Below are positions 5,643 to 55,360 of a stretch of 64,000 nt of DNA, piece by piece. The notes under the pieces were generated by a model, which worked only from the letters and a program-made list of their open reading frames with translations, was not told where the DNA came from and ran no database searches. Position numbers and translations under genes: made by a program. The first letter of the stretch is position 1. Each line of letters begins with the position of its first letter. This stretch comes from Botryllus schlosseri. Lineage: Eukaryota. The stretch lies in the NCBI GenBank assembly GCA_051294905.1, contig CM119372.1, positions 13,332,001 through 13,396,000 of the forward strand. Direction: 5' to 3'.

Positions 5643-6698
5643 ATGAGTGATAAGAAGTCAAGGATTTTCTCCGAAGTTCACCAGATTCTCGAAGACTGTG
5701 GATGCCCTTACACCACTGATATCGATAGCACATACCTCGGCGACCTATTGATGGAGCCGGGCGATCACAGACTCCGAATTCTCATGTGGATATTTAGTCA
5801 AATTGACACAAGTGCAGAAAAGGTGATCGGATCCTTGGAGGAGAGAACTATCAGTTTGACAGGTACCATAATTGATAAAAGAGTTCAAGTACTGACGAGT
5901 CTGGCTTCCACGATAGGATTGTGTCGCGCCGTTGACTTGGATCTTATAAGAGGAAAAGCACAAGCCAGTTCTCAATTTTCATTCTGGAGAACGATCACAA
6001 GAATATTGAAATTCTCGAACAAGCACTTCCGCAGCTCATTCATCAATGACTGCCTAATCTTAAACAAAGTGAATGCAACGGACAGCAATGTACCGAAACA
6101 GGTCAGTACAGTCGTGACCAACCTATTACCGCCAAATCTGGATGAGGAAATTAGCAAGATGCAGCTCCCTCGTAAGTCAACGAATATTATTGATCACATT
6201 CAGTCAGAGTTGGAAGAACTATCTAAGTGCCTGGCTACGGACACGTCACGTCTAAATATGCTAAAAGGAGACTCGATGTACACTACCGCGGACGATGAGG
6301 TCGCAGCCAAAAGCGTCGCTCGCAAACTGAATTTGACATTTGCTGACCTCGATCAAATGATCACAACCTTCGAGCAAGTGTTTATCAACAGTTACCTGCC
6401 CTACTGTGATAAAGAGAAGGAAGAATTTGGTAACGTTGGACCCTTGTTTCAAATTGTCATGAAGCAGTTTTCTTATGTCACAAAAACTCTCGATGACCTT
6501 CTTGCTGTTACCGAGTCTCGTGACATCATTGATAAATGCTCAAAAGATTTGGGAAGTATAGGCCTCCTCGCTTCCAAACCATTTCTCTCCGAAGCAACGA
6601 AGCGCCTAGAATCTTTATCATGTGTATTAGAAAAACAGAAATATGACAGTGAGGCGGTCGACTTGAAAAGGTCACCAGTTACGTTAATGACTTTGTAA
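5643..6698 (+). CDS. HAUS7: HAUS augmin-like complex subunit 7, intronless CDS
   Basis: 351-aa ORF. ILEDCGCPY..LLMEPGDHRLRILMWIF and LASTIGLCRAVDLDLIRGKAQASSQFSFW resemble the HAUS7 N-terminal domain (LxxLxCP..LL..P..RL.IL.W; LGLC..D..LI.G.....Q..F). The C-terminus looks coiled-coil. Confidence 0.82.
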   Translation: MSDKKSRIFSEVHQILEDCGCPYTTDIDSTYLGDLLMEPGDHRLRILMWIFSQIDTSAEKVIGSLEERTISLTGTIIDKRVQVLTSLASTIGLCRAVDLDLIRGKAQASSQFSFWRTITRILKFSNKHFRSSFINDCLILNKVNATDSNVPKQVSTVVTNLLPPNLDEEISKMQLPRKSTNIIDHIQSELEELSKCLATDTSRLNMLKGDSMYTTADDEVAAKSVARKLNLTFADLDQMITTFEQVFINSYLPYCDKEKEEFGNVGPLFQIVMKQFSYVTKTLDDLLAVTESRDIIDKCSKDLGSIGLLASKPFLSEATKRLESLSCVLEKQKYDSEAVDLKRSPVTLMTL

Positions 6699-20564: not shown

Positions 20565-21450
20565 TCTAAATTAATCATTTGATATCATGAAAATGTGCTC
20601 CTGTTGCTAATATAGTAGTCCGTTAGCAATGCATAGAATAAAATGAATTTGTATGTTTATATGCGCAATGAATTCAGCTAAAGCCCGAAAACTCGGCTGC
20701 GCAATGCACGGTTTCACCCACATTATAGGAATGCAGAGACAGACTGGATAGATTGCAGAAATAAAATTGTTCGCTAGTCGTTACCGTTTGCAGCTATATA
20801 TTTTTGATTCACCAAATAAACGGTTACGTTAGCGGTACCTCGGGTGCTTCCGACTTGGTACAGCTGTAGAAGGAACCTTGAGTTATACTTTCAGGTGAAC
20901 GTTCACTTCATATCCTGTCACGCCGAAAGAGGATTTCCATTTCAAAATATGCATTCAAAAAGTCACGATTACCCTTCACAGGATCAGGATAATAATAATA
21001 AATTATCTTCCAAGTAAACTATAAAGCACGGAACCAGGCGACACGATAACGGACCGCGAAGAAATGATATGAACCGCTAAGAATGAGAAACCGAGTGCAG
21101 CCATCGCCAGCATTGAGATAAACTCAATATAGCTATCAATGTGTTGATACATTTTTTTTTATTTTGAAAGTTTTCGTCTTACTTAAGCACATAGGTTCCG
21201 GAAGGAATCTCACTCGTACCTGAAGCATACAGGTTTACAAAAGGCCACACGTATGATAGAAGAATAACAGTATATAACCATTTATTGACAACAGCTTGCG
21301 GATATGACGATTATATACAAAAAGCAAATAGGTTATTGAAACCGAGCGGTTACTTTTTCCACTTTACACACTCATTTACCCAACTGCATCCGCTAGATGA
21401 CGCTATGCATAAATTTGAATCACTCGGCATTAGGGCTGGGCACAATACAT

Positions 21451-23071
21451 TAGGGATGGTGTGAACCTCTGAAAGGTTCGGGTTCGTGTGAACGCGTACC
21501 TTTTTGAAAGGTTCTGTGTGAACACGAACGTGAACCTCGTGACGCCATATTGCTAATTCCAACCCTATCTTTCAATGAAGTGATAGCCTATATTAATGTA
21601 CACGATACCTAGCGAAGACTCGGGCCACATAATGTCGCATTGCTGTAGTAGGCTACATATTGGCGTTATAAACGTCGCTTAATGTATCAACCGCGGTTAT
21701 CAAAGGATATAATAATCTCATAAAATCAATACATTCTGTCGCTTTGCCAACAATTTCGACGAGGACTTACCATGAAATATAAGCTTACGCCTCAATGGTC
21801 TTAGCCAGACCGGACAATGTGTTCGGAGTCTGAGTATTGCTACATTGATGTTGAGCAGAGTGTAAAACGGGTTTCTATACTCGCTACCGATACCATAAAC
21901 AACAAGTTATATAGCAGTAGCCAGCACCTTAATCGCACGGATTTGGTTTTAATGATACAGTTAAGATATTTGGTCAAGATTGACCCCGTACGCCCATTCG
22001 ATATTTTACATCAGAAAACGATATCAATGTCATTGATTGGTTGAATAAGCATCATTCGCTGACTACGTATATCGCTCGTGACGTTGTGTGATTGCGGGTC
22101 AAGTTCACAGCGGAGAGTCACTAAATATTCAAAACGGAACGCTAAATATTTCGAGACATTTTTGGTAACAAAAAAGCAAGTAAAACTTTTAAGGTTGTCA
22201 TGGTGCATGCTCGTTTAGTGTTTATTTTTTATGCTGCCAGCGCCATGCATAGAGTGACCCGCAGTTGAAATGCAATAAACTTGAACCAAAGAGATCTTAT
22301 AACGAAGTGCAAATTACAATTTACCAAAAAGGTTCATCATCATCATTGGTTTATTAGCAATTTTATCAGTTCAATACACCACAAAAATGCGATACAATGA
22401 AAAGACAGGAAGATGTCGAAGCGACAAGGAGTAGTCTATGGAATCTGACACCCACCTTGGCCTAGGCGATGTAAAGAGGAGGCATGCACACTGAATGAAA
22501 GTAAAGAAGATAGTATAGAAAAAGAATGCGACAAGAAATAGGGCGGCATGTCATGGGAAGCGAGATCGATAGGTCAGTCGTGGTCCGGTAATCTTGAGGA
22601 TGGACTGTATTTATTTAGTAGTAATTGCTTGTATTTCGACTTGAATGTGGACATGCTCGTCGACTGTCGGATGGCCGGCGGGATACTGTTCCACACATCA
22701 GGTCCGGCATATTTGATGGAGCGATGATCTTTTCGGTCGATCATATGATATTTGGACGACGTGGACGCGCGTGTGTTGTACTTGTGCGCTTTTGATTCAG
22801 AGGTAAAGAAGTCATTGAAATATTCGGGGCAACGACCGCAGTGAAACTGATACATAAACTTGGCGATTTCTAGTTTCTGCATATCTTCTAAGTTTAGGAC
22901 GCCGAATCTCTTCAGCAGCGACTTATTGGATGTGCAGCCAGGCCCCTTTGGGGCCCTAGCTATGATTCACAGTGCAGAACCTACCAAGGTTCTGTTGTGA
23001 ACGCGAACCTCTAAATTTCCGAGGTTCACACACAGAACACGAACGTGAACCTCACGTTCACACCATCCCTA
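21451..23071. mobile_element. hAT-type element carrying a nested LINE fragment
   Basis: TAGGGATGGTGTGAAC...GTTCACACCATCCCTA with perfect 8-bp TSD CAATACAT. Confidence 0.88.
22335..22945 (-). mobile_element. CR1/L2-clade LINE 3' fragment
   Basis: ORF 22574-22882 ([38 protein letters not shown]) is a typical LINE ORF2 C-terminus. It is followed by a 3' UTR ending in (ATG)n. Further copies at about 45400-45790 (-), 59220-59315 (+) and 61720-62035 (+). Confidence 0.85.
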
Positions 23072-34300: not shown

Positions 34301-37300
34301 GCAAAAAATTTGAAAAATATGTTGGATAAAGTCTAAAAAATACTCTATAATTTATGCTCATTTGCAAAATATTTTTGGCCTCCTTCAAGCTCGGCCCGTC
34401 TACAATTGGGGGGTTAGGGTGCCGCAGTTACGGTCCTGCACAAAATGAGTGAATCGAAATCGAATGATCGCGCAAACGGCGCGGTTTAGCGAGTCAGCTC
34501 GTAGGCCTACTTGTCGCTCGCATGTCGTCAAATGACACGTCTAAACTTCAAGTCAAATCGAACATGTTTCCATAATAGGGCCTACCTAATGTCACTTCAC
34601 GCAGTTCTGAATCAGTTTAAAATTTGATGTTTATTTATTTGATCAATGGATAAGCCTTCAATATATTGCATCTTTAAATTAAGGTGCAAAATTGTAGTAT
34701 GCCTGTGCTTTACACAGCGGTTCTCAAACTTTTTAGCCACGCCCCCTTTATGATGGTGAAAAACGTCGCGCCCTCTATCGTCATATCACAAAATGCAACC
34801 CGAATGCTAGCAATCCCAAGAGATAGCTTGATGGCATGGGCGGTTTATGACTGTTTATGAGAAAATTTTAAAATTCTCCATGACCGCAGCTTCGCGCCCC
34901 CTTCAGATGCCTTCACGCCCCCCAGTTTGAGAACCACTGCTTTACATCAACTAAGGAATCGATATAGGGACTAGCGATACACGTTACTATAGCTTAAAGA
35001 CTATCTCCTCCTCAAGCTTGATCTTGTGGGGACGCCCTAAGGGCTTTTCTAAGCGTCTCGGTCTTGGCAGTATCTGGACCATTGCACGTCAAGGCAATAT
35101 ACCCATGCCCATTCATATCAGCCGTTTCAGCTATTGAGGAATAGTGACGTTGGGCACAGCCCAATAGCTTATTTTAAAACAATAGCAACAACAACAATAT
35201 TTTAGAACCGAAATCAATTGCGTTACTTAGCGTCATTCCGAAATCTCAAATCAGATCGCGCGCGCAAAATATGACCTCGCGGAACGCGTGTCGGTGACCT
35301 TTGACTTACATAATGAGGCCAGTCTCTTGGTACGTAAAGAATGTCTCCAGGATGTAGTTCCAATTCGAAAAAGACGACCTCTGACACCCGTGGGAATTTT
35401 TGCAGATCAACGCGATCGGGAACGACTGGAGACATGGTAGGTGTTTCGGTATCGTTGCCTATGTACAGCTTGAATGAAAAGTAAATATTTTATCATTATT
35501 TTATAGTACTTGAATTCAAACCCAGAACACAAACCGATTCAGCGAATGTGCTATTTGCTATGAGCCATCGTTTTCGTCCAGCTATGAAATGGAACAAATT
35601 GTCTGACGCGTCATTGTGCAGAACGTAACTTACGTTTCCAGAGTTAACCATCAAGTTGATATATTGAACCTGTCAAGAGCATTTGAATAGGGTATATATG
35701 TGATATAAAACTTATTCAACATACAGTCTGGTACGTGTATCCCCCCCCCCCACCGAACGTGGGTGTCTGATTGAAAGACTAACTCCATTTTGTTTTGACT
35801 CCTTCCTATCTTTTCATTTTATCGCAATCTTATAGTGTTTTGAAATGATGAAATTATTGATAAACAGAACGAACTTAAAGCTCAGGAAAAGACTATACTT
35901 AAAGTAATTATTCCAATCGAAACTGCGGCTGGCAGGCTATATGACCTACAAGGATATACGTCACTGTTATTACCTCATAAAGACTTGTCTCTGCTACCAC
36001 AAGAGTAATGATGTGAGTGGTTATAAAATTTTTATCGAAAACTTGCGACAATGTTGCTAAATACGATGAGAATAATGTGCAGATTCAGAAATTTATTTAA
36101 GAGCCATACATTATCATCAAAAGAGTCATATATGGCTCGCGATCCGTATGTTCCCGGCCGTTGCTATATAGTAATATCTTCCATTCGCAACGGGTCAGGC
36201 ACATTGGCGTAGCCAGAGGGGGACGTAAAGCGTCATGGGCCCCCCGCAAAGCCATATATAGTTTTGGTCAGCATGCCGCACTTTGTGAAGTGCGGTCCCA
36301 GTAGTCTAGGGCGATAAAACCTACGCATGTTGTCGCGGAAGAAATGCGATCCGTACATGAAAATATTTTCCCCCATGAAAAAGTGCGAATGTGGAATCGT
36401 ACGAGTCCGACCACAGGAGTTTTTCTTAGTTTGCTCTTGTAAATGTGAGCGATTCCAGCGTCTTCAGAGTGATAGAGTCCATAGAGACAATCTTTACCAG
36501 GGGTCATGAAATAACAACATGCGTCAGGAGTAATTAATAAAGATGGACCCGTCCGAGCTAACCTATACGAGAACCTCATGAATAGTCTGAAACGTGTGAC
36601 ACGAACACTGCTTAGTGATCATATGTATCAGTCAACTCAATAGTAGGCCTATCGAAGAAAACCATTCATTTACTTGAAAAAAATTGCGCTTAGCGCGACT
36701 AGGATTGAAATACAAACTGATTTTCCATAACATGAATATTAACGATTTTGGCTCGAACATCAGTTAGATTGGAACGCAGCTTTTTTGTCAATATTCATGG
36801 TCGAAAAAGGAACCAATAAAGAATAACCACAGTCACTATACTTTTACGTAGTATAAGAACGGATAGTGATTGCGGGTACAGTGCCCACGGGTCACGTTGG
36901 CCGGAAACTGTCTGCGGGCCATATGTTGCTTGGCCCTGTCGTAGAAGACAGGACGGGTCTGGGGGCGATCCTCTGAGGGAGTTCCCCTGAACTCATCAAT
37001 CCACCCCCATTATTTTCTGACTACGCCTATCGCGGATTTTGACATCATCACCTTATTGCACAGGGTATATTCGCCCCGCGCATGACATGTTGGTATTCGG
37101 GAATGGGTGTTGAAAAGTGCGAACACACTTACCTGCTCCAGTAAGCCTTCACAACTGAGGAATATACCCAGCGGGATGTCGGAGAGAATTTTTTGATCTG
37201 GGCGAATTACATCGTCCCAGTAAAGCTGTTCGCGGCGTACACGATCCAAGAAATCGCTAAATTATATAGCAATGTTTATATCAGGGTGGGCAAACTTTTT

Positions 37301-40300
37301 AGTTCGGGGGTTGTATTCAAAATAGGAATTCATTCGCGGGCCGCACTATAGTAAAATCTGCATTGGAAGCCGGAACGCAATATTTTCTTTAATTATATTT
37401 TATAACCGAAGGCATGGAGATACGTACGGTAGCATTTAAAAGAAACGGCATTTTAAAACACGTTGTTTAAAACATGTTTTAAACAAAGGCATTTAAAAAA
37501 ACATTTTTTTTTCAAGTTGTAAAATTATGCCACAGTTGTGTAAATACTTTCCCAAAAAACATGTTGTATTAGCCTACGGACAATTACCACCCGATTTAGC
37601 TGACGTATATCGATATGGGATGGTTGGAACCATCAAAATAGCCGGTTCAACAGTTATGGATATTTCGTCAAAGGAGCTATATTTACCCTATATTTTCAAT
37701 TGTCAATCTGTTATGACGTCACAGTTGGAATATTCAAGACGTCATGGCTTAGAAAAACAAACAAAAACCAGGGAAAAACATGTTTTAAATATGTTTGTTT
37801 TTAATTGATTTTTGTTCTAAATGCAACCCGTAGAGATACGTGTATAACTATACCTGAAAGAAACCAGACATTGTTTTGATGAAAACGCACACGCGTCAGA
37901 AACATATGAACGAGTTTTTATGAGCTGGTCCTCCTCAATAACCAATTTGTTCAAATTAGGAATGAAAGTATATGTTGTGTCAAGTCTTAGAACATGATGG
38001 AAATATGAATCTTGAACAGCGATTGCGGCTTTTGGTGTAGCTTCAAAACACACTTGGCTGACAGCGTCATAAACACGTTACCCTAAATGCGATTCAGCAA
38101 ATGGCTTACTGTGTTAAACATTAAACTTGCCTTCTTCGCGATCTTTTGTGAAGACGACAGCAACATAATTTACTATTGTCTCAAACATTTTATTAATCCT
38201 GTTGAAATATTTTGCACCTTTACCCCCATCATTCATAAAAGGGGCTGGCAACTTCTCCAGCAGTTGGCGGGCCGGATAGAGGAAAATTAGGTATTGGCTG
38301 GCCGGATTGCTGAATCGATACAATATCCGCCCATTTATCCACATATACAAGGAATAACTCGTATTTAATGAATTTATTTCTACGACAGCATAATGTCACA
38401 TCAAAGCCATTTCTCGACGATAATGCCGAATAAAATGTGCATTTGAGAACAGCATTGTCGTACAAGCGCCGCCATGTCTGCTTCTCTCTGATCAATTAAA
38501 AAACGGTGCAATCCTTGATTAAGATTTCAAGGCGTTCGATACGCTCGGTACCCCAGATGTGCCAATAAGATATCAATTCATTAGGGTTGAGTACATCGTA
38601 AATGCCGATAATCCAAGTCTTCTCGCTAGTCGCTTCGACGAACTTACGCGTAAGCTTAGCGTTGCCATATTTTGGAATCGGGAAAGGGAGGACCGCGGGC
38701 CGTATGTAGCCCGTCCCTGACTTATAACTTACCAGTATCACGGCGAAACCTATCCAGAAAAAGTTTAATCAAGACGTTGCTTTAATTCGAATATTACTAC
38801 TATATATTACTTTTAATATCTTTATAACGCTTCTCGAGGCTTCCGCGGGCCGTAGTTTGCCCACCAATGGTATATAGCAATGTAGATAAGCTCCTAGTGT
38901 TATTGAAGCCATAAAGCGCGTAAGCGTAGGCGATAGGTAGAAATTTTTACGTATATCAATTACATCATAATCACTATTAAATCACCCGAGAATTATAATA
39001 TAATTGCTTGACACATTGTACGTCAGTGCAATGAAACATGTCTCTAAACTAAAGTCATACCCAAGTTCCATATTTGTACTCAACTGCTGAGATCGAGCAA
39101 TATCTCCCCTTGAAAATTATTAGTATCATTGATTCATTCGTTATGTACAACAGGACGGAAGGAAGAGCGTCAATTTTCGTCTGCGCCATCGATCGCGGTG
39201 CAGGTGCGTATATTAGTGCGGGGCATGGGAAGTCCATAAACTAGATATCCGACTGATTTTTTTTTCATTTTTGGCCGGAGCCGCATCGGATCAGTACCGG
39301 ATTCCAACTACGGAGTACTGGGAGTGATGTGGAGGATTCAGCCAGATCTGGAGTATTGGCCTGATTTTTTTTGTATACTTGACCGGAGTCGGATTCATGC
39401 TTTACTCTGATGCAGCCGGAATAGGTTCGGAGCCGATTTCCATTTTGCATAAACAGGATCGGAGTCGGACTTGGGAATTTGTCGATACGGCAATGCGAAG
39501 GAACGGCAATGTTATGGAGCCGGCACTCTCATTTCCTTCAGGGGCAATCCGTGGGAACCAGTTTTACAAGCAAGCCTCCGATCTGGCCCAATGATATATA
39601 TACCTTTGGTCTGGCCCGACCGGAGTACGAAACCACGACTTACTGATCGAGAAGTTAGTCAACCGGCCATTACGCTATATTGTCGAATGTAATGTCGCTG
39701 TAACGGTTTGGGGCAGAGTATAGTTATAATAAAATTTGAGGTATATCCTGAACAAACCTATAGTTCATCACACTCCGAGGAGGTGCTTCGATGCCACCTT
39801 TCTCCCAAGTTGTTCTTCTGTCCACTAACCCTGCTACTGACCCGAAATTCGCCTTCATGTAAGTATCGTTCACCCAGTTTAACATAGCCTATAAAACAAA
39901 AACGATATAGCTATAATGGCTCGATGTATAGCAATAATAGATAATATGTCACAAGTGGTCTCGTGTATAGATCTTCCAAAATATGTAGGCTACCATTTGG
40001 TCAAAAGGCAATCTCATTTCGCTACATTTATCAAAGAGAAGAGAAAATGTTTTCAATACGCAGTGACATAATAGTGATAGCGGTCGCAATAGCGCACGCA
40101 CAGCGTTCAATTCGATATAGTTTTGGATTTTGAGACCATGCACAATTGCGCATTGTCCACTTTGTATACGCTCGGACCTTGTGCAGTTTTACTATTCCAT
40201 GACATCACTTACTACGAAAACATTTCATAGTTGAAAATGCTATAATCTCTGAGCAATTAAAACGACACTAAATCGCACCGCTAGAAAATAGACAGGACAT

Positions 40301-40663
40301 GAATTCGGAAATGCTACAATAGAGATTATAGAAAAACGATGTATGGAGCGGTGAACCAGAGAGGTTGCGAAAAACGTTGATACATACACACGAATTAAAT
40401 CATGCCAATTACGAAAATATAACTTTCCAATTTACCGAGCTGTGTTTCATAGCACCCCTAAACACGACCGGTTTTCCAGGCTTCCAGTAATCGCGATAGA
40501 ACACTCGGGACGGTATTGTATAGGAATATTCATCTATTCCGCCTCGGATGATATAGTTTTGGTTCCCAATAGGCTTCAGATGTCCACGAGGAAACTGTCG
40601 TAGTCCTTGCTCGCCTGCTAGGACCAGAGCAGCTAACAGCGACAAAGTCCACGCCACGTTCAT
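31324..40663 (-). CDS. JmjC/cupin-like (Cupin_8) 2-oxoglutarate oxygenase with N-terminal signal peptide, 6 exons, 305 aa
   Basis: Exons 40663-40436, 39888-39758, 37256-37133, 35669-35535, 35468-35310 and 31464-31324 splice in frame. Motifs: MNVAWTLSLLAALVLAG (signal), GHLKPIG, FYRDYWKPGKPVVFRG, LHNDASDN (HxD), GRKRW, LHPGDILYVPRDWPHYVRS, NIALNIW. Confidence 0.88.
32290..32488 (-). mobile_element. tRNA-derived SINE
   Basis: The reverse strand reads TGGCGAGATAACGTAGTGGTA (A-box-like) ... GAGTTCGAGTCC (B-box), then the family core GAGGTTTATCTAGGCTCC. Confidence 0.65.
32683..33561. mobile_element. hAT-type element (family of 23998-25132), nested in another hAT starting at about 32497
   Basis: TAGGGTTACCATA...TATGGCAACCCTA, TSD AGTTAGTT. 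Confidence 0.85.
34715..34939. mobile_element. hAT MITE (family of 23402-23725)
   Basis: CAGCGGTTCTCAAAC...GTTTGAGAACCACTG flanked by CTTTACA on both sides. Confidence 0.75.
37282..38869. mobile_element. Non-autonomous hAT element in an intron of the JmjC gene
   Basis: CAGGGTGGGCAAACTTTT...GCGGGCCGTAGTTTGCCCACCAATG, degenerate TSD GTTTATAT/GTATATAG. Confidence 0.75.
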
Positions 40664-41699
40664 ACTCAACGATCGCACCCAACAGCAGATGCTTCTTTCG
40701 AAGCTATCCAAATTTATGCATAGCATCGCCAAATATAATAATGATTCATTCGATCATTACATGATAATTGCATGTAGGATATCATGATGCGACACCGAGC
40801 ACAACGGAAGCTTCCCAATTCTCAGAAGACTCCTAGCCATATGTTCAATCTTCTACGAAAAACTCCTGATGATTAGCATTAATTCTGCGATGCATGTTTT
40901 CACATTTCGAGCGATGATCTACTTGGTCCCGTGTACTATACTAACAGAGCAGCATCCGTGATCCGTCGCTTGGTCATGGCGACACATTAGCCTAAGCACT
41001 TATATTCCAACAGTTTTTGGAGCCAAATTAATTACGTTAAACATTTCAGATTTATCAACAAAGCAGGATTTAGACAAGTTCGCAAGATTTCACGAGTGAA
41101 ATTGCCATGACAACTGAGAGACACAGACCGTGCATGACGGTGAGATACTATAATTTCGAAGATTGTGCTTCAATTCAATGGGGCATTGCCATTCATCGTC
41201 AGTCGTGAATATGAACATTTTAATGAATGGCAGTCTGATCGTCTCACGGAAATCTTTAACCGTTCACTTCAAACTACTTGAATGGTACTAATTATACTGT
41301 TCCCTTTCGCCTCATACTTGTATTTAGTATAAATTGATGGCATAGCTCGACTTGTACTCGAGTGCCAACAATCACTGCTTTGCTCATCTGTGCACACCTC
41401 AAGAATCACGACTCGCGAGACAGATGAGATACGAGTTTTTAATTCTCCTCTTGGCAGAATAACGCTCACTTTACAGAGCAGATTTGAGTTCAAGGCTATT
41501 AAAGAGATATTTCAAGCCAAATAGGCTACATTTGCTAGCAGGTCGCACAACTCGTTTAGAAATCAACAGTGTCGGCAATGTGTGAATAGCTACTTCGATT
41601 GCGGGATTCAGGTACAGAAAAACCATGAATATCATGTTGAAGAACGGATTCGAAGCAGCATTTCTCGAGTGTCAGCATGCATGTTAGTTCGCACGGTCT

Positions 41700-44600
41700 T
41701 CAGTCGTCTGAATCGTCGGCAATTTCCGCCTGTTCCCTCACCAAGAGCTCTCTTGCCTTTTTCAAATCACTCTTCATGTTATAATGCTTCTTTCTAGCAG
41801 CTTCGAACTTGGATTTTTTTTCTGCAACAATGGCGGATCGCTTCAGCAAAGATCTTCATGAGAAAAATTTAAAGCAGCAAATGTAAAGAGCTAGGAATAC
41901 TTCAACAGCACACATTATTAACGCATCATATTGCATATAGTCATAATTGCAGATCATTACACACTCAAAACCCAATCGGTGACTAATCTTTGTAGTTGCC
42001 CAGAGTCAGAGCTGGCCAAAGTAGTCTGCGTTGCTACTCAAGTAGAAGCCGAAGTAGCGTAGTAGATTTATACTAAATTACAATTGAGATGTAGCAAATT
42101 CAAAGACATGACAAGACTACTTCAAGTAGAAGCAGTAAATGAGATCTAAAAGTACTCAAGTAGTTTTAAGATAGAGATTTAGTTGATGGGTTGCATATCT
42201 TAGCTGTCAACCGTAGGTGGCTACCTTTGATGTCGCAGCGTGCATCTTCGCGAGCAACGCAAAACGACCACTATTACTACAAATAGGTGTAATATTTCGC
42301 AGCGTGCATCTTCGCGAGCAACGCAAAACGACCACTATTACTACAAATAGGTGTAATATTTGGGTGACCATACGACCTCCTTTTTCAGGTTTTTGAAAAT
42401 GTCCTCCTTTTTGGCATTTCGTCCTCCATTACAGCTTTTACAGCTAAGACAATGGACGGATTCGAGTGAAAATGGGCATAAACGAGGCTAAGACGGACGT
42501 TCAAGCGGGAAATTTGTGGTTCGATCGAAAGTGACGACTTTTTTTTGTTAGTCAACACCACTACTATATTTAAGTAAAAAGTGTGTAAATCGTGAGTCGA
42601 ACGGAAAGTGATGACCTCTTTTTAGTCAACTCACCAAATTTTACAGCAAAAATAGCGAAATCGGCTGTTTTTAGTCTTGTTCAACTAACTTTTCTGATTT
42701 AGCAAAAGTGTCCTTCTTTCCCGATTCCAAAATATGGTACGGGATACCGGTCAACCCCGTCCGGTTATTACGCAGCTCACTCACCATAAAGCCTTGTTTG
42801 AGCAATGAATATAGGTCTTGGTTAGTTACAAATTTCAGTGCCTTACCTTTAGCTTGAGGTGAGAGATGGTCATCCTCCTCATCAGTACTTATCGCTCTAT
42901 TGCGGGAGGATGAGGTTTCAGATGAAGCTAATCTAAAACAAGGATGAAAAGATAGAGAAATCAAAGCACAAGACAACATAACCAAACAAATGTCTTAGAA
43001 GGATTCGAGTGTAGTCCGCAAACAAATAGTAGGCATATGCAAAACACTAGCAATCAATTGATTGTAGTTGCAGATGCTTTCAAATAATGCTCTCAATCAC
43101 AGCCGACAGGAAATATCATTCATACTTATACTTCAAGACGGGGGAGTTTTTTTAACTGCTCTCAAGGTCTATTAGGTTAGGTTACCGTTCTGACAATTCA
43201 TCAGGATCTACTGGCTGTGAGTCATCATCATCATTGCTATGTCGGTATGGAGTCTTTGGCTCTTCTATTTTCATGTGACCATAATCTTTATCTGCTGGAT
43301 GATGTGTTGCCAAGATATTCATCTCGTCAAAGTGAGCTGCTTCCTTGCTGTAAAATTATACATAAGAATGCGCCTTGATTGAATGAGTCATTCGCGAAAG
43401 GTTTCTATAAAATTCATATGTAACATATTGGGACCCTGTTAGAGGATTACAGCACAACTGCACTCTGCTAACATACACTGGTTACTAAATTACATTAAGC
43501 CTAAGGCCTACATACTGATATAATAATAATAATATTGCCAGTACAGGAGGACGAAACCATCGATTACAAGTTTCATCAACGTGATATCAGTCATCAATTG
43601 GAATATCATAAACAAACCGACAATTGGATAATGTTTGTTTTTTTCCTTTCCTATATCTCATCCCTGTCTATCTGTCAACTGTCTTGATCTGGGTTGCTCG
43701 AATTGGATTAGTTACCGTCAACCTGACAATACGATTTATGGTTAATAACGAATATTGAATAACTAAATAAATCAAGAAGTAACGAGGCTTTTGGTTTTCA
43801 GTGTGACTGAAAAGTTTCGAATGTTTCGCTCAGAGGAATACTTGATGACACGAAAATGGAGTTGAAACCATAGTAATTCGATATGTTTCATCCGTCCAGT
43901 CACATAATTTATAGGCAACGACTAGAGTTAAGTCAAGTATTGACGAATATCATTCGAGTCACCCCAACGAGCATCTGTGGTAGGGATAAATGAACATTAA
44001 CCCATACCGCTAAACGACGTATATTGACATGCTGAATATGAAGATCTTCCCAGCACCGTCACATTAATACTGGTGCCTTAGTCTGACTGATTACAAATTA
44101 CCAACTAGTACATATACCGTTCGGTACAAACGCAAAGTCAGAAGACGTAAGATTCAACAACTTTATTTCCCATCTAGTCAACATATCGCAAATGTGTATG
44201 GTGAAGAAACACTGCTATATCATGATAATACGGCAATTGACATTCGGTATTTTATAAACCTGTAATCACTAGCAATAGGCCTAAACAATTTGCTGTTGGC
44301 TTTTTGTAGAAAACAAGCTATGAAGTAAACTGCAGTTGAGACCGACACAAAATTTGATTGTAAATTTTAACGCTCGCAATGGCATCCAGTGCGGCATAAT
44401 GCAATTGCTGCTCAGTAAGAGGGTAGAGATGCCATGAGCCTTTTCTGATTGAATCAACTTTGGGTAAATCACAGTTGAGGAGGAATTTCACTAAGCCAGC
44501 TAGACTCCATCTTTCATTGGACATCAACCTTTCATTAGCAAAACTGCCGAGATCTACAAAGCCACTTTGCGGAAAAATCAGATCAAAATCTCTGCACAAT

Positions 44601-46114
44601 TTCTGAATGTCACCTTCGACATTCACACCGACCTTAAGAACGTCCACTCTCTCTATAACCTCTCTAAGAGGTTTCGGGATTGAATTCATACACGAGACAT
44701 GGAAAACGAAACACACTTCATCGGGAATGTGGCAAAACTGGATGACCGCAGTTCTCCCTTGTTTGCCATGTTCATACGTAACAGGCCATTCAATGTCAAA
44801 TCCGATATGACAAGGTCCTCTCAGAGACTTCAAAAATTCATTGCACACCACAGCACAGTCGTTTGCATTGAAGGAATATACAATGCTACAGCTACTTGGA
44901 ATAGAGAAGGTTGGGAGTGTTTTCTTGATAGCACCATTTTGCATCCATTGAGGGAGCTTTCTGGGATTCCTAATAAAAGATTTTTAGTGTAAATAAATAA
45001 TGGAAAATGTCTCATAAAATAGCAATTCCGAGATCAGGTTTCCGAGACATACTGATTCTCTGTTCCCATTTCGGGTTACGTTCAGGTCTCCAGCTACTAG
45101 ACTACCTTCAATTTTATTAATTGATATTTTGAGATAGATGCAATGCAACAACACGTCATGAGCACTCGAATACAGCATCGCATATTGCAACAGTGTTCTC
45201 ATTGTGAAGGTAAAGAAACAGCTGGGCTAGGTGAGGCATGATTGTAGCATGGGCAGGTCCAGAAGATCTAGGAGTAGGAAGTTTATAGTATTAAATGAGA
45301 ATTCTAAAAAATGCACAGATTGTGATGTAGTTTGAGCAAATGAGTCACAGGCATATATCCTTAATAGATGTTCTCTTGATCGTTAATTCAATTCAATTCA
45401 TTACTATAATCATTTTAATACACCACAAGACTGTGATACAATGAAAATAGGAAGGTAGCGAAACGACTTGGAGTAGTCTAAGAAATCAGACACCCACCCG
45501 GCCTAGGCGATGTAAAAAGGTTGCATGCACACTGAATGAAAAGTAAAAGAAGATAATATAAAAATAGAGGTGACAAAAAAGTGGCATGTGTTGGAAGGCG
45601 AGATCGATAGGCCCATATGTCAGGTCATGGTACAGTGAACTAGAGGGCTAACTATATTCATTCCGTAGAAATTGTTTGTATTTTGACTTGCATGTGGACA
45701 TGACTGTTGGATAGCCGACGAAATACTATTCAACAAATCAGGTCCGGCATATTTGATGGAGCGATGCTCATTTATGTCTACCATATGGTACGGTACGGTA
45801 TGTAGTTGGACGACATGTACGGTGTACGTACAGTGACGTATGAGTCTCAATGCAGACCAGTAGTAAGTAGTTCACTAGTTTGTAATTTCAGCAGTTTGTA
45901 CAGTCAAAATAGAGCATAAGGACGCAAGCTGGCACCTTTATATGCCTATATCATCGAGAATTCTGAATATATCTTTCACTACTACACCCATATTTCATAA
46001 ACAAACGGAGTCAACAACCGTATACCTTGCGTTAGATTCGATCTTTTTATCCGATCCAGATTTCTTCAGAATACCCCGAGTAGGCTTATGTCCGGCACCA
46101 GAATTGCTCGCCAT
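41700..46114 (-). CDS. PPP1R2: Protein phosphatase 1 inhibitor-2 (IPP-2), 4 exons, 152 aa
   Basis: Exons 46114-46026, 43347-43186, 42932-42847 and 41821-41700 splice in frame: [18 protein letters not shown]...[31 protein letters not shown]...[12 protein letters not shown]...KKARELL. Contains the GILK, PxTP and HYNE-like motifs. Mostly absent from the ORF track. Confidence 0.95.
42233..42361. repeat. Perfect 64-bp tandem duplication
   Basis: TCGCAGCGTGCATCTTCGCGAGC...GTGTAATATT occurs twice, immediately before a MITE (GGGTGACCATA...GGTCAACCC, about 42362-42757). Confidence 0.9.
44318..45069 (-). CDS. Stand-alone Werner-syndrome-type DEDDy 3'-5' exonuclease (WRNexo-like), nested in PPP1R2 intron 1
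   Basis: ORF 44318-44944 has IGFDIEWP (ExoI), [17 protein letters not shown] (ExoII), WSLAGLV and W...[14 protein letters not shown] (ExoIII), then a stop. The frame extends to the acceptor at 44969 with [10 protein letters not shown] candidate mini-exon at 45069-45053 supplies MGTENQ. Confidence 0.9.
45400..45790 (-). mobile_element. LINE 3' fragment (family of 22335-22945) in PPP1R2 intron 1
   Basis: [15 protein letters not shown] peptide and a shared 3' UTR (GACACCCACC..GGCCTAGGCGATGTAAA). Confidence 0.8.
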
Positions 46115-46234
46115 GTTTTCTTCTTAGTTTTCCGAATGTAGAAGCTTTCAATCAGGTATAACACTCACCGGCAAACCGACTCAAAATAACCAGGGCCAGT
46201 CAATCAATCAATCATCAATCAATCAGTCATCTCC

Positions 46235-48918
46235 TACAGGGTTGGTTCGATTATGTTCACAATAAGAGCAATTCTGTTCAAAATAAGAGCAGTCTCATGT
46301 TCACAATAAGAGCAGTCATGTTCACAATAAGAGCAGTCTCATGTTCACAATAAGAGCAGTCGTTGTATTCACAATAACATCAGCCGCAGCACCACCATAT
46401 CCCCCGGACACGATGTCCGAGTGGCAACATCGTCCGAACACAACCCAGACACGATGTCCGAACGCCCCCCCCCTCTACACACCCCAGACATAATGTCCGA
46501 ACACCCCAAAGACATCCTCCATACACGATGTCCGATCTCAACACGCCCCCGACATGATGCCCGAGTGTCAACGCAGTCCGAACACACCCCAGACACGATG
46601 TCCGAACCCACCCCACCCCCAGACACGCCCCAGACACGATGTCCGAGTGTACACGCAGTCCGAACACACCCCAGACACGATGTCCGAACTCCCCTTCCCA
46701 AGACACACCTCAGACATGATGTCCGAATACTCCCCAGACATCCTCAAGGCACGATGTCCGAACTTGCCACGCCCCAGACAAAATGTGCGAACCCCCCCAG
46801 ACACGATTTCCTAGTGTACACGCAGTCCGAACACACCCCAGACACGATGCCCGAACTCCCCTTCCCCAGACACACCCCAGACATGATGTCCGAATACCCC
46901 CCAGACATCCTCAAGGCACGATGTCCGAACTCGCCACGCCCCAGACATGATGTCCGAGTGTCAACGCAGTCCGAAGACAACCCAAACATGATTTTATGAA
47001 CACACCCTAGACTTGATATTTGAACACAGGCCGGGGCATGATGTCCCAACACGATTTCCGATTGGCAACGCAGTGCGCGGACACACCTCAGTCATTATAT
47101 CCAAACACCCCCAGACATGATGTCCAGAGTGTCAATGCATCATGTCGGGAGTGTGTTCGGACTGCGTTGACACTCGGACATCGTGTCTGGGGTGTGTTCG
47201 GACTGCGTTGACACTCGGACATCGTGTCTGGGGATGTTCGGACATCATGTCAGGAGTGTGTTCGGACTGCGTTGACACTCGGACATCGTGTCTGGGGTGT
47301 GTTCGGACTGCGTTGACACTCGGACATCGTGTCTGGGGGTGTTCGGGCATCGTGTCAGGAGTGTGTTCGGACTGCGTTGACACTCGGACATCGTGTCTGG
47401 GGATGTTCGGACATCATGTCAGGAGCTAGTGTGTTCGGACTGCGTTGACACTCGGACATCGTGTCTGGGGTGTGTTCGGACTGCGTTGACACTCGGACAT
47501 CGTATCTGGGGTTGTTCGGGCATCGTGTCAGGAGTGTGTTCGGACTGCGTTGACACTCGGACATCGTGTCTGGGGGTGTTCGGACATCATGTCTGGGTTG
47601 TGTTCGGACTATGTTCCCACTTAGACAACGTGTCCGGGGGATATGGTGGTGCTGCGACTGATGTTATTGTGAATACAACGACTGCTCTTATTGTGAACAT
47701 GAGACTGCTCTTATTGTGAACATGACTGCTCTTATTGTGAACAGGAGACTGTTCTTATTGTGAGCATGACTGTTCTTATTGTGAACATGAGACTGTTCTT
47801 ATTGTGAACATGACTGCTCTTATTGTGAACATGAGACTGTTCTTATTGTGAACATGACTGCTCTTATTGTGAACATGAGACTGTTCTTATTGTGAACATG
47901 ACTGCTCTTATTGTGAACATGAGACTGTTCTTATTGTGAACATGACTGCTCTTATTGTGAACATGAGACTGTTCTTATTGTGAACATGACTGCTCTTATT
48001 GTGAACATGAGACTGCTCTTATTGTGAACATGGCTGTTCTTATTGTATTATCATGTCTGAGGTATCTTCGGACTGCATTGACACTCTGGACATAATGTCT
48101 GGGGGTGTTTGGATATCATGACTGAGGTGTGTCCGCACTGCGTTGCCAATCGGAAATCGTGTTCGGACATCATGCCCCGGCCTGTGTTCAAATATCAAGT
48201 CTAGGGTGTGTTCATAAAATCATGTTTGGGGTGTCTTCGGACTGCGTTGACACTCGGACATCATGTCTGGGGCGTGGCGAGTTCGGACATCGTGTCTGGA
48301 GGATGTCTGGGGGGGTATTCGGACATCATGTCTATGGTGTGTCTGGGGGAAGGGGCGTTCGGACATCGTGTCTGGGGTGTGTTCGGACTGCGTGTACACT
48401 CGGACATCGTGTCTGGGGGGGGGGTTCGGACATCGTGTCTGGGGTGTGTTCGGACTGCGTTGACACTCGGACATCGTGTCTTGGGGTGTTCGGACATCAT
48501 GTCAGGAGTGTGTTCGGACTGCGTTGACACTCGGACATCGTGTCTGGGGGGGCGTTCGGTCATCGTGTCTGGGGTGTGTTCGGACTGCGTTGACACTCGG
48601 ACATCGTGTCTGGGGGTGTTTGGGCATCATGTCAGGAGTGTGTTCGAACTGCGTTGACACTCGAACATCGTGTCTGGGGGTGTTCGGACATCATGTCTGG
48701 GTTGTGTTCGGACTATGTTGCCACTCGGACATCGTGTCCGGGGGATATGGTGGTGCTGCGTGCTGCGACGGATGTTATTGTGAATACAACGACTGCTCTT
48801 ATTGTGAACATGAGACTGCTCTTATTGTGAACATGACTGCTCTTATTGTGAACATGAGACTGCTCTTATTGTGAACAGAATTGCTCTTATTGTGAACATA
48901 ATCGAACCAACCCTCCTC
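46235..48918. mobile_element. Foldback-type element built from minisatellites (FB1)
   Basis: Inverted ends AGGGTTGGTTCGATTATGTTCACAATAAGAGC / GCTCTTATTGTGAACATAATCGAACCAACCCT. The arms consist of 19/21-bp ATGTTCACAATAAGAGCAGTC(TC) units and CCAGACACGATGTCCGA units. Candidate 9-bp TSD GTCATCTCC at 46226-46234 and 48919-48927. Confidence 0.8.
47680..48045. repeat. Alternating 19/21-bp (40-bp dimer) minisatellite
   Basis: (GACTGCTCTTATTGTGAACATGAGACTGTTCTTATTGTGAACAT)n read directly from the sequence. Confidence 0.95.
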
Positions 48919-49649: not shown

Positions 49650-51045
49650 CTTCTGCTTCGAACATTTCATATATTCGGAAAACTATTTCATCGTGGTTTT
49701 ACGACGCCTACTATTTTAAGATCAAAACGCACGATTTTGCGTCAAATACGACTTTTCGTCCAATTGGATTATCGGTAAGTTTCAATAGACAATTAGGACA
49801 CCTAAAATATAACGGCGTGCCCTCTGCTTTGAATATGTTATATATCTGGATAGTATTACATCATGGTATTAACGATATTATCAAAAAGTTGAGAAATTGT
49901 GTACTTTTTGAGGATCAAAATGCATGATTTTGCGTCAACTACGACTTTTCGTCCAATTCGATTTTCGGTCAGTTTCATTCGACAATTAGGACACCCAAAA
50001 TGTAACGGCGTGCCCTCTTCTTCGGATATGTTATGTATCTAGATAATTATCACATCATAGTATTAACGATAATATCAAAAAGTTGGGAAATTGCGTACTT
50101 TTTGATGATCAAAATGCATGATTTGGCGTCAAATACGACTTTTCGTCAGATTCGATTTTCAGTCAGTTTCAATCGACAATTAGGACACCTAAAATATAAC
50201 GGCGTGCCCTCTGCTTCGGATATGTCATATATCCGGATAGGTATTACATCATGATATTAACGATAATATCAAAAAGTTGAGAAATTGCGTACTTTTTGAG
50301 GATCAAAATGCATGATTTTGCGTCAAATACGACTTTTCGTCCAATTCGATTTTCGGTCAGTTTCAATCGACAATTAGGACACCTAAAATATAACGGCGTG
50401 CCCTCTGCTTTGGATATGTTATATATCTAGATATGTATTACATCATAGTATTAACGATAATATCAAAAAGTTGAGAAATTGCGTACTTTTTGAGGATCAA
50501 AATGCATGATTTTGCGTCAAATACGACTTTTCCTCCAATTCGATTTTCGGTCAGTTTCAATCGACAATTAGGACACCCAAAATGTAACGGCGTGCCCTCT
50601 GCTTCGGATATGTTATATATCTAGATAATTATCACATCATAGTATTAACGATAATATCAAAAAGTTGAGAAATTGCGTACTTTTTGAGGATCAAAATGCA
50701 TGATTTTGCGTCAAATACGACTTTTCGTCCAATTCGATTTTCGGTCAGTTTCAATCGACAATTAGGACACCTAAAATATAACGGCGTGCCCTCTGCTTTG
50801 GATATGTTATATATCTAGATATGTATTACATCATAATATTAACGATAATATCAAAAAGTTGAGAAATTGCGTACTTTTTGAGGATCAAAATGCATGATTT
50901 TGCGTCAAATACGACTTTTCCTCCAATTCGATTTTCGGTCAGTTTCAATCGACAATTAGGACACCCAAAATGTAACGGCGCGCCCTCTGCTTCGGATATG
51001 TTATACATTTGGATAAGTATTACATCATGGTATTAACGATAATAT
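49650..51045 (+). repeat. 194-bp tandem array, about 7 units (left TIR)
   Basis: Anchor GACAATTAGG at 49788, 49981, 50175, 50369, 50563, 50757 and 50951. Confidence 0.95.
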
Positions 51046-51453
51046 CTGTTATAACATCATGATATAACAGTTTCGGTTTTACCATGCTATGTCCTGTCCC
51101 GCTTTGTCATCTTCCCTAATTTTTGTCAGCAACTCCCCTCGAATCAATGAGTTTCAGACGGATTAATATGCAAATTGAAAATGTAATTTCGAAACGTGTA
51201 TTTTGTAAAGAATACTCGATTTAGATATAGGATTGTAGAAATGGACGTATTTAGAGAAAAAACGAATTCTTTTAATTCACGCGGCATATCATTCCAATTA
51301 ATCCAATGAAGACCCAAAGTCTTTTGATATTGAATTGTAGTCCTGATTTTTCAGTGCCATTGCGAAAAATATCATTCCTTCAAAATGCAGCACTTCGTTT
51401 ACATATTCTCGGAAATTTCGTTTTTTGTCTTTAAAACTACGTTCCTGTCCATG

Positions 51454-54320
51454 TCATATTGTTGAGATTGTTTCCATACCGTGGAACATATGGCACATCT
51501 TTCTTTTTCTCCACAATTGTGCATGTGCCAAATTAGGCGGTATGCGGCGACGAGGAATTTGCTTTGATCTTGCGTCCTTGATCGTCTCACCAGTTTTTAC
51601 GTACATCAGGATTGTAGCATTTTGTTGCGTGTCAATTATTAGCCCATCAGTATTTACCACACGTAATGCGTCGTCGTCGAATACTGTGCAGAATCCATCA
51701 TGATTTCCGGTATATGCGAGATAGTGGCCCGATGCACACGACGTACCATGATGGATTACTTTCCCTTTTAGCATATAATGGGATTTCAATCCATCTACTT
51801 CGAGATCCATTAAATCGGGTATCTGGACTGAGGTGATGTTTTTACCCTCTGGAGTTCCGCGACTGACATTTATCACCAGCATGTTGGGAAGGGTTCCAAA
51901 TACGACATGTTCGTCTACATCAGCGTGGCATTATAGGCATTTGCTGTTAGTATTAACACATTGACGAGGAAAATTTGTGATCAGGTCAGAAATATCACTG
52001 TCCTCTTCAAATGTATGTAAAACAACGGATAGCCGATGTTCTATGAACTTCGAGGGAAAATTGCAACGCTTGCAATTGACTTTGCGAACCAATCGAAATT
52101 TGGAAGTAACCCCCATCTGCTCCATCGCATCGCTCAAGTCTGTATCGAGAATTCTGGTGATGAACTCTCCGGCATCTTGCTGCGTGCCACAATCCCATCC
52201 AAACTTTGAACATATATCTGATACCAATTTTTCAATGTCAGATACGATGCAATGTCTGCGGCTATCTAAAGTCAATTGCATAATTAATTGCATGAAATCA
52301 GAGGTTATGGATGCGTACTCGGCATAGTTCATTGCTGCACCGATATGGCCTTTCAGACATAATGTCAAGCATTGGGTGGTAGCATTGAACCAACAAGAAT
52401 TTCCAATATTAGGCATACCTTTGGTGCAGGTGTTAGCGCAAAACGTATTGACAGCGATGTGTCTAATATCGCGGTGAACAGAATGTGACTGACTAACGAC
52501 TTGAAAACATATCCATTTTCGATACATGGTCAAAAATTTAATTACATCGGTACCTTCAGAAGGTTGATCGAGTCCGAAACAAACCCGATCCGCGACAACG
52601 CAAACGCCGCAGCTCTCAAGATCTGGCTGCTTAATCGGACATTTTCGTGAAAAAGAAACGACCTCGCACTTGGTGAAGTTTTGCAGCTCGGGCATTAAAT
52701 GTTCATTAATAGCCCAGTTAAGACCTTCGATCACGTGGTCAATGGAATCGTATAATGTAATAGAATTGTCATGTGAATCAAATACAATCAGATAGAAATG
52801 CCTTTCCCAAACTAATGGATAAAGTCGCGTCATGAAAGCACAATGCCCCTCCTCGCCATCTCATCAGTCTAAGCCAGGGGTGGGCAAACTTTTGAGCTCG
52901 CGCGTCGCATTCAACATCTGAATCCATTCGCGGGCCGCACTATATAAAATTGGCATTTGAACAGCTTCTTGGAGGTACATACCTTCAGTACAAATTGACA
53001 TTGTAAACCGAAACTCAATATTGGTATTTGATTATATAGTAAGGACGTGGAGATAATATACATGCTTATTTAAAACAATCCAAGCAGTGCTTTGATGATA
53101 TCGTACACCCGTCAGAAACAGTGACGAGATTTCATAGGCTGGTCGACCTCAATAACCAATTTGTTAAACTATACAGATGAAAGTCGGTTGTCCCGATTCT
53201 TAGATCAGGATTGAAATTTAAATCTGTGAGCATATATTTGCTAATTCCACTTTTGGTTCAGTTCCAGGACCAGGACACACAATACTGACAGCACAATGAC
53301 CATGTTAGCTTCAAACACGCTTCTACTACAAAAAATATAAATATACCCTATTTCTACGCATACAGAGAACGAATAATATAACTCTAAGACACGCGCGAAT
53401 CGTTTTTTTATAATAAGCACATCACGGAAATAGTTAAAACTGGAGTGGCCAATCTGAAATCACACTCGTGATCCTAATTATGTCAATCTCGTTTAGGATT
53501 TCTGTGATGTTTAGCAGTTGAAACCTTTCAAACTGCGTGGGCCTTGCGTGGGCCTTGAAATTACACATATAATGTAATACAATATATAATAATAAAATAA
53601 TATAGGAAGTATTTACCGTAGAATAGTGGTTCTCAAACTTTGTAAGACACGCCCTCCTTATAAAGGTTACAGATTTATCGCCCCCTCATCGGCATATCAC
53701 AAAACGCAAACAGGATGCTAGCAAACCTAACGGATAGTTTGATGGCATTGAAGGTTACGACTGTGGATGAGAGATTTCTAAATATGAAATTCAGACAAAA
53801 TATAGAGCAATAATTATTAATGGGAAGGAAATCGCGCCGTGCGCGAAAAAAAATTTCAGTTGAGCTCAGCTTCGCGCCCCCTTCAGATGCTTTCATGCCC
53901 CCAAGGGGGGCGCGCTCTCCCCAGTTAGAGAAACACTGCCTTACAATTATCATGGTGAAGTATACTAAGATCAAGTACCTGCATTAATTCGATTTTTTGT
54001 ACGCATTTCATCAATATTTTTAATGAGTTTCTGTAGACTCTCGCGGGCCGCACAGAACGGTGTGGAGGGCCGCATGCGGCCCGCGGGCCGTAGTTTGCCC
54101 ACCCCTGGTCTAAGCGGTGCTCTATAAAAATGCTATTCTAGCCGTGCTACAAGTCGGCAGTTAATATATATGAAATAAATATGAAAAAATGGCCTTGTGT
54201 AAATGACCATAGTGGCTGACAAACACCATGAACACCTCAAGCAAACAAAGACTGAACATATTGAAGATCAGCCAATTACCAACGCCTAAAATGTCTAATA
54301 TTTCAAAGCTTTGCATTTCA
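51454..54320 (-). pseudogene. Decayed Ulp1/SENP-like (C48) plus USP-like (C19) cysteine protease fusion, interrupted by a hAT insertion
   Basis: C48 motifs: ILGVGNWL (about 54270), PLVWERHFYLIVFD...ITLYDS, KQPDLESCGV. C19 motifs: GMPNIGNSCWFNATTQCL, QQDAGEF, CKRC, CL*C (in-frame TAA at 51931-51933), LPNMLVINVSR, YMLKGKVIHHG..SGHYLAY..FDD, ILMY. Confidence 0.85.
52875..54107. mobile_element. hAT element inserted into the protease gene, with a nested MITE at about 53625-53938
   Basis: CAGGGGTGGGCAAAC...GTTTGCCCACCCCTG, perfect TSD GTCTAAGC. Confidence 0.92.
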
Positions 54321-54321
54321 T

Positions 54322-55360
54322 TTTGAGTGTCCTAATTGTCGATTGAAACTGACCGAAAATCGAATTGGACAAAAAGTCGTATTTGACGCAAAATCGTGCA
54401 TTTTGATCCTCAAAAAGTACGCAATTTCTCAACTTTTTGACATTATCGTTAATATCATGATGTAATACTTATCCCAATATATAACATATCCGAAGCAGAG
54501 GGCGCGCCGTTATATTTTAGGTGTCCTAATTGTCGATTGAAACTGACCGAAAATCGAATTGGAGGAAAAGTCGTATTTGACGCAAAATCATGCATTTTGA
54601 TCCTCAAAAAGTACGCAATTTCTCAACTTTTTGATATTATCGTTAATATCATGATGTAATACCTATCCGGATATATGACATATCCGAAGCAGAGGGCACG
54701 CCGTTATATTTTAGGTGTCCTAATTGTCGATTGAAACTGACTGAAAATCGAATCTGACGAAAAGTCGTATTTGACGCCAAATCATGCATTTTGATCATCA
54801 AAAAGTACGCAATTTCTCAACTTTTTGATATTATCGTTAATACTATGATGTGATAATTATCTAGATATATAACATATCCGAAGCAGAGGGCACGCCGTTA
54901 CATTTTGGGTGTCCTAATTGTCGATTGAAACTGACCGAAAATCGAATTGGAGGAAAAGTCGTATTTGACGCAAAATCGTGCATTTTGATCCTCAAAAAGT
55001 ACGCAATTTCTCAACTTTTTGATATTATCGTTAATATCATGATGTAATACCTATCCGGATATATGACATATCCGAAGCAGAGGGCACGCCGTTATATTTT
55101 AGGTGTCCTAATTGTCGATTGAAACTAACCGAAAATCTAATTTGACGAAAATTCGTATTTGACGCAAAATTGTGCATTTTGATCCTTGAAAAGTACGCAA
55201 TTTCTCAACTTTTTGATATTAACGTAAATACTATGATGTAATACATATCTAGATATATAACATATCCAAAGCAGAGGGCACGCCGTTATATTTTAGGTGT
55301 CCTAATTGTCGATTGAAACTGACCGAAAATCCAATTGGACGAAAAGTCGTATTTGACGAA
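54322..55360 (-). repeat. 194-bp tandem array, about 5.5 units (right TIR, inverted)
   Basis: Anchor CCTAATTGTC at 54331, 54525, 54719, 54913, 55107 and 55301. Confidence 0.95.

Follow-up and report, generated by a model that had tools for sequence, protein, structure and literature searches.

In the ascidian Botryllus schlosseri, the first coding exon of PPP1R2, the inhibitor-2 gene, is spliced either to PPP1R2 exon 2 or to a proximal terminal exon that is nested in intron 1 and encodes a stand-alone WRN-type exonuclease. The locus lies within a 64-kb window (contig CM119372.1, positions 13,332,001 to 13,396,000); coordinates given below are positions in this window, and all features of the locus are on the minus strand. 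A chimeric transcript joining PPP1R2 exon 1 to the nuclease exists, and we consider it probable that the nuclease exon serves as an alternative last exon and borrows its promoter and ATG from PPP1R2, with the head encoded by exon 1 carried along.

PPP1R2 has four coding exons (46114-46026, 43347-43186, 42932-42847, and 41821-41700) that together encode a product of 152 aa, and all three of its introns are present as RNA joints. The shared coding exon 1 (46026..46114) starts with the ATG at 46114 and comprises 89 nt, or 29 codons plus 2 nt; its donor (AAG|GTATAC) is in phase 2, RNA joints connect it to both 43347 and 44969, and its 5′ UTR (untranslated region) extends in RNA to at least 46193. 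The nuclease exon begins at 44969 directly after TTTATTAG, also in phase 2, and its frame remains open until the stop codon at 44320-44318. Its coding part (44969-44318, 216 codons, intronless) lies inside PPP1R2 intron 1, and the alternative terminal exon as a whole (44195..44969) is transcribed to at least 44195, as seen in a contig described below. An AATAAA at 44162..44167 is likely the poly(A) signal of this isoform. Joining 46026 to 44969 removes a GT..AG intron of 1056 nt (intron 1a, 44970..46025) and creates an open frame of 246 aa.

To assess transcription, four of the 24 listed runs (X3, X16, X18, and X20) were aligned to positions 41200-46240, with 6-13% of each raw run being sampled. 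X3 consists of assembled contigs, RNA by guess, which skip all three PPP1R2 introns. In these alignments, the splice 46026->44969 appears as the joint 44968/46025 (ends CT..AC, cut +1). It was crossed by two X16 reads with two distinct starts, compared with 46 reads for 46026->43347 in the same run; the corresponding counts were 0 and 8 in X20, and 0 and 2 in X18. Pooled over these three runs, the nuclease junction makes up 2 of 58 exon-1 junction reads (3.4%; exact 95% interval 0.4-11.9%). In X3, an 805-nt contig with a depth of 8.79 contains 31 letters of exon 1 followed without a break by 44968-44195, while contigs with the normal PPP1R2 splice reach a depth of 94.7. X16 depth was 2.6-5.9 over the nuclease exon and 0 across 43397-44072; in the sampled fraction of X20, no depth was found over the nuclease exon. 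Both isoforms, each in frame, are thus expressed as RNA, at low counts. An earlier note on this DNA had described a stand-alone WRN exonuclease on the same strand in PPP1R2 intron 1, in frame with an exon 1 that ends in phase 2 at 46026, and had proposed direct splicing to the phase-2 start at 44969. All of these coordinates check out, the nested arrangement is borne out by sequence, Pfam, and the RNA joint, and the two raw reads and the X3 contig answer the doubt that a phase match is by itself a 1-in-3 coincidence.

The nested exon matches PF01612 in Pfam (E 1e-20), and its best matches in PDB are the mouse and human WRN exonucleases (E 1.6e-43, versus 1.2e-10 for EXD2). As had been proposed, it carries both a DEDDy nuclease and a Ku-binding motif. 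The DEDDy residues (44384..44797; codon starts D 44797, E 44791, D 44611, Y 44398, and D 44386) are all kept at the positions aligned to the WRN exonucleases in PDB, and are invariant or nearly so in the alignment of relatives. We take the three residues other than D82 and E84 to be catalytic. For D82 and E84, a role in a WRN-type exonuclease is described in PMC2408639. Upstream of the domain, R-K-L-P-Q-W-M (44942..44962) matches, by alignment and by consensus, an APLF-like Ku-binding motif (KBM), of which the core is R-x-x-P-x-W (PMC4831024). The KBM pattern is also matched by 65 of 151 exonuclease relatives, these being the best 150 of 2,879 plus P0002, and short proteins of this KBM-exonuclease type are common among invertebrates. 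Because the conserved R, P, and W of the motif precede the first in-frame ATG of the nuclease exon (44944), translation must begin upstream of this exon, and we saw no upstream start other than exon 1. In human WRN exonuclease, the N-terminal KBM binds the vWA domain of Ku80 and is reported to be needed for recruitment and stimulation (PMC13377182, PMC4831024), and the helicase-free DmWRNexo is described as an active nuclease (PMC3636389). By analogy, the Botryllus protein is most likely a Ku-recruited, end-trimming WRN exonuclease. We also considered a full-length WRN gene with downstream helicase exons, and rejected it given the stop codon at 44320-44318, a transcript that ends in intron 1, and a WRN-like helicase on another contig.

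The closest named match of the nuclease, at 53% identity, is from Styela clava, as is that of PPP1R2 exon 2, at 75%. There, NCBI lists XP_039267575, a WRN homolog, as 'isoform X1' (251 aa) and XP_039267576, an inhibitor-2-like protein, as 'isoform X2' (154 aa). These consecutive accessions share their first 30 residues exactly and part where the Botryllus isoforms also diverge. A second version of the X1 accession retains the fused head, and its contig is equal in length to that of X2. The shared-exon arrangement is thus real and, going by the Styela annotation, conserved between the two species, and the suggestion that one promoter yields two unrelated proteins by alternative terminal-exon choice, also made in the earlier note, agrees with the RNA joints and with the Styela isoform pair.

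Outside these two species, the head was not found among the relatives examined. A docking-type pattern, [GS]IL[KR], occurs within the first 80 residues of 2 of the 151 relatives, namely the Styela protein and one in which the match is in-domain, and a single in-domain match was obtained among 111 further proteins. In Phallusia mammillata, a Met directly precedes the KBM of the nuclease (P0322), whose head is not shared with Phallusia inhibitor-2 (P0098). The nuclease of Clavelina lepadiformis (P0168) also starts without the inhibitor-2 head, and named relatives from amphioxus, hemichordates, priapulids, molluscs, and cnidarians are short KBM-exonuclease proteins, each with a start of its own. 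Since the first protein library holds one protein per 50% cluster, close relatives are hidden in it. A metagenome scan provided one informative animal locus (L005) of the 80 kept. Its relative is intronless, like the coding exon in Botryllus, and has its own ATG, with a pyrimidine tract and an acceptor-like AG 11 nt upstream; no PPP1R2 match was present within 8 kb on either side. L005 contains two tandem intronless WRN-type exonuclease ORFs (open reading frames; 3823-4476 and 8001-8669) that are ~45% identical, the upstream one having a degenerate KBM in which F replaces W. As the relatives examined outside start without the head, parsimony suggests that the fusion is the derived state. A quick tree, in which proteins of more than 400 aa were trimmed to their first 260 residues, groups the Botryllus and Styela nucleases with P0002 and P0157, both of which start at the KBM Met. 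This truncation is only suggestive, because P0303 is cut alike although its gene has an upstream ATG.

Searches of the Botryllus genome covered the 495.5-Mb assembly, and copy counts from them are lower bounds. With the nuclease protein, PF01612, and fish full-length WRN as queries, the nested exon was the sole close WRN-type exonuclease, and no parent copy of it was found. A weaker, multi-exon exonuclease match on contig C8 is presumably EXD2. A multi-exon helicase on contig C16 matches WRN residues ~453-1138 better than the other RecQ loci do and appears to be WRN-like; the 17 kb that precede its first matched exon contain no exonuclease match. A search with the RQC family gave no match in the genome, a blank that is uninformative because exons of the RQC region were matched by tblastn. 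Ku70 and a second Ku gene are present, as are two PP1 catalytic genes, and PPP1R2 itself is single-copy. Near-identical RecQ helicase exons lie ~40 kb apart on contig C15 (L113 and L114, 11.96 and 12.01 Mb), which suggests local duplication. In this genome, many housekeeping genes consist of one long ORF without introns (L085, L088-L092, L002, L003, and L107); examples are Ku70, the two PP1 genes, three further PPP phosphatases, two further PF01612 nucleases, and one RecQ helicase.

In the reading that we favor, the locus is a single transcription unit that can end in either of two ways, each excluding the other. Exon 1 is mostly joined to exon 2, giving inhibitor-2, while a few percent of transcripts have it joined to the nested intronless exon for a WRN-type 3′-5′ exonuclease; this second form probably ends at the AATAAA at 44167. 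The protein would be the only WRN exonuclease of the animal; Ku80 would recruit it to DNA ends through the KBM, as for human WRN exonuclease, and it may act beside the separately encoded WRN-like helicase. As to history, an intronless and once independent WRN exonuclease gene may have become lodged in intron 1 of PPP1R2 on the lineage to Botryllus and Styela, where its upstream acceptor would have captured the exon-1 donor and its own ATG would have been lost. Exon 1 would now serve the nuclease chiefly as a promoter and start codon, and the 30-residue head, including its SILK-type motif, would be carried along.

Several points weigh against this picture. Raw-read support for the junction is thin (2 of 58), with both reads coming from X16, whereas X20 (0 of 8) and X18 (0 of 2) showed none and X20 had no depth on the nuclease exon. 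The evidence for the chimera is at the RNA level. Support from Styela is that of the NCBI annotation, and the putative clade of the window nuclease, Styela, P0002, and P0157 has an SH-aLRT of only 85%. Finally, conservation of the GILK motif discussed below cannot separate a passenger from a motif in use, because inhibitor-2 needs GILK anyway.

Alternatively, the head may have been selected for a function of its own. In such a functional chimera, the SILK-type head would dock PP1, and the Ku-bound WRN exonuclease would thereby carry the phosphatase to stalled forks or DNA ends; the PP1 in question might belong to a holoenzyme in which another adapter occupies the RVxF groove. The motif in question, GILK (46064..46075), forms residues 14-17 of both isoforms and is of the SILK type described in PMC11561318, where inhibitor-2 is reported to bind PP1 through SILK, RVxF, and IDoHA/HYNE. 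Exon 1 is identical to that of Styela at 11 of 30 residues, centered on R-GILK; exon 2 is better conserved (75%). Docking would fit with the retention of the in-frame fusion in both species, although their nucleases share only 53% identity, and with the presence of PP1 catalytic genes; SILK is a recognized PP1-anchoring motif that stays engaged in ternary complexes when the RVxF of inhibitor-2 is out-competed (PMC11561318). However, the chimera contains the SILK motif while the IDoHA helix with HYNE, encoded by PPP1R2 exon 4, is absent. The RVxF-like and HYNE motifs of inhibitor-2 are encoded in exons that the nuclease isoform skips: exon 2 (43186..43347; Pfam and RNA joints) encodes the RVxF-like region and the IPP-2 core, exon 3 (42847..42932) is defined by RNA joints, and the last exon, exon 4 (41418..41821), encodes a HYN motif and has its stop codon at 41702-41700 and an ATTAAA at 41443-41438. 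PF04979 (IPP-2) matches exons 2 and 4. With the RVxF pattern [RK]x?[VI][^P][FW], no match was obtained anywhere in the Botryllus chimera, nor in P0002 or P0157. The Styela chimera has one match at residue 52, 35 residues past GILK, which may be counted in favor of docking but is not conserved. In cells, mutation of SILK or RVxF is reported to lower PP1 binding only partly, whereas loss of HYNE abolishes it (PMC11561318), and a SILK mutation in C. elegans is described as having little phenotype (10.64898/2026.03.15.711929). A complex prediction combining residues 5-300 of the animal's own PP1 with residues 1-60 of the Styela chimera scored 0.05 against a mark of 0.34, with a tool for which peptides are untested, and is given no weight in either direction. 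The need for a start codon accounts in any case for conservation of the frame, and all other WRN exonuclease relatives examined do without such a head. Recruitment of PP1 by the chimera appears possible, if weakly supported. A PP1-targeting WRN exonuclease, in which Ku80 holds the ends via the KBM, SILK docks PP1, end-trimming is linked to dephosphorylation, and a splice switch controls supply, is doubtful, and we regard it as unlikely that the fusion was selected for this. Borrowing of the promoter and ATG is favored over PP1 docking because the chimera has SILK alone and inhibitor-2 needs GILK in any case.

We regard as distinctly improbable a regulatory coupling in which a splice or poly(A) switch keeps nuclease dosage low, or gives nuclease in place of inhibitor-2 in some tissues or after damage. 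The nuclease form is indeed minor (8.79 versus 94.7 in X3), its exon has depth in X16 and none in X20, and switch-like control is described at loci with a shared first exon such as unc-60 (PMC3875643). Nevertheless, depth is too low to tell regulation from sampling, X20 having 8 exon-1 junction reads, and a diversion of a few percent would hardly alter inhibitor-2 levels.

The nuclease could also be an independent nested gene with its own promoter and ATG, provided by a mini-exon or a trans-spliced leader, in which case the exon-1 junction would be a side product. A candidate mini-exon (45053..45069), which the earlier note had offered as the source of an own ATG, has an ATG and a good donor in the right phase (TCA|GTATGT, phase 2); low-depth X3 contigs cover 45065-45398, and X16 and X18 show some depth in the bin 44918-45086. 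However, the joints listed from the four runs, all but one of the total, do not include 45053->44969, and the X3 contig of the nuclease starts in exon 1. Dinucleotide shuffling of intron 1a produced an ATG with a phase-2 donor of similar quality in 767 of 1000 trials, and within ~160 nt of the acceptor in 151 of 1000, such that the mini-exon is at chance level, and the annotated Styela protein uses exon 1. We therefore rejected 45069-45053 as the main nuclease start, and an independent gene seems very improbable. Splicing noise into a decaying or silent nuclease copy, which the few junction reads and their absence from two of three raw runs might suggest, is scarcely credible given the intact frame, KBM, and all five catalytic residues of the only WRN-like exonuclease found in the genome, and the same structure annotated in Styela.

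Other features of the window were noted. X16 contains an opposite-strand joint, 41823/42931 (9 reads, 2 starts), that is probably a library artefact. Multi-copy repeat fragments in the PPP1R2 introns, at ~45400-45760 within intron 1a and at 42380-42740, attract many reads from elsewhere, and the fragment at ~45750 resembles the end of an ORF at 22577-22966. Complex tandem-repeat arrays (periods 23, 41, 44, 64, and 105-173 nt) occupy 46253-48899. Their start lies upstream of the most distant PPP1R2 transcript end seen (46193) by ~60 nt, so that little unique promoter sequence is left. Directly downstream of PPP1R2, on the same strand, is a cupin-8/JmjC gene (within 35226-40753, minus strand) whose first exon resembles a signal peptide. 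Arrays of 194-nt units at 49709-51046 and 54320-55358 flank minus-strand ORFs (51457-52860) with matches to the UCH deubiquitinase family in two frames, possibly the cargo of a mobile element. An intronless M20 peptidase at 1560-2792 (plus strand) is presumably aminoacylase-1-like, an intronless ORF at 5637-6695 (plus strand) with a weak Plant_NMP1 match is one that we take to be HAUS7-like, and exons at 18150-20570 (minus strand) have weak ARMC5 matches.

We found no published description of the PPP1R2/WRN exonuclease pairing; subscription papers and supplements could hold one, and the pairing itself is in RefSeq for Styela. An apparently single-copy DNA-repair gene would here have given up its own start and come to be expressed as a minor splice variant of a housekeeping gene to which it is unrelated, in an arrangement kept across two well-diverged ascidians. 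Nature thus offers a setting in which to ask whether SILK on its own can recruit PP1. WRN exonuclease and helicase appear to be separate genes in this lineage, which is sister to vertebrates, and the short amphioxus and hemichordate proteins suggest the same. In practical terms, gene-level counts or knock-outs of PPP1R2 exon 1 in such animals would affect both proteins, and single-exon gene callers may cut off the KBM, as the starts of P0002 and P0157 suggest.

Parts of this arrangement resemble known systems. Stand-alone WRN exonucleases are already known (PMC2408639), and Drosophila WRNexo (CG7670), Arabidopsis WEX, and the N-terminal exonuclease of human WRN share with the Botryllus protein the DEDDy WRN-type domain and an N-terminal KBM, which mediates Ku stimulation of the human enzyme (PMC4831024, PMC13377182). 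The stand-alone proteins also resemble it in having no helicase in the same protein. The Botryllus nuclease differs in that it has no start codon before its KBM, is made as a splice form of PPP1R2, and carries a 30-residue inhibitor-2 head. In C. elegans unc-17/cha-1 and unc-60, a common first exon is spliced either to exons farther downstream or to a gene that lies within intron 1 (PMC3875643). The shared exon of unc-17/cha-1 is untranslated and unc-60 shares only a start codon between two paralogues (PMC3875643), whereas in Botryllus 30 coding residues with a docking motif are common to unrelated proteins. Retrogenes that use host exons, such as mouse Taf9/Ak6, jingwei, and TRIM5-cyclophilin, are likewise intronless copies that use upstream exons of a host, and PMC5408686 describes host-exon use for Taf9 with Ak6 and names retroduplication with loss of the parent as a major source of intronless tunicate genes; unlike in these cases, the L005 relative is already intronless at another locus. 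In the CSB-PGBD3 'exon trap' in ERCC6 intron 5, a single-exon ORF within a host intron, with a 3′ splice site and an AATAAA, serves as an in-frame terminal exon and is conserved (PMC2268245). The Botryllus ORF similarly has a 3′ splice site before it and a likely poly(A) signal after it, with both in-frame isoforms being expressed. The ORF of CSB-PGBD3 is a transposase and its fusion is as abundant as the host protein, while the Botryllus exon encodes a cellular repair enzyme, is used in a few percent of transcripts, and is apparently the only copy of this nuclease.

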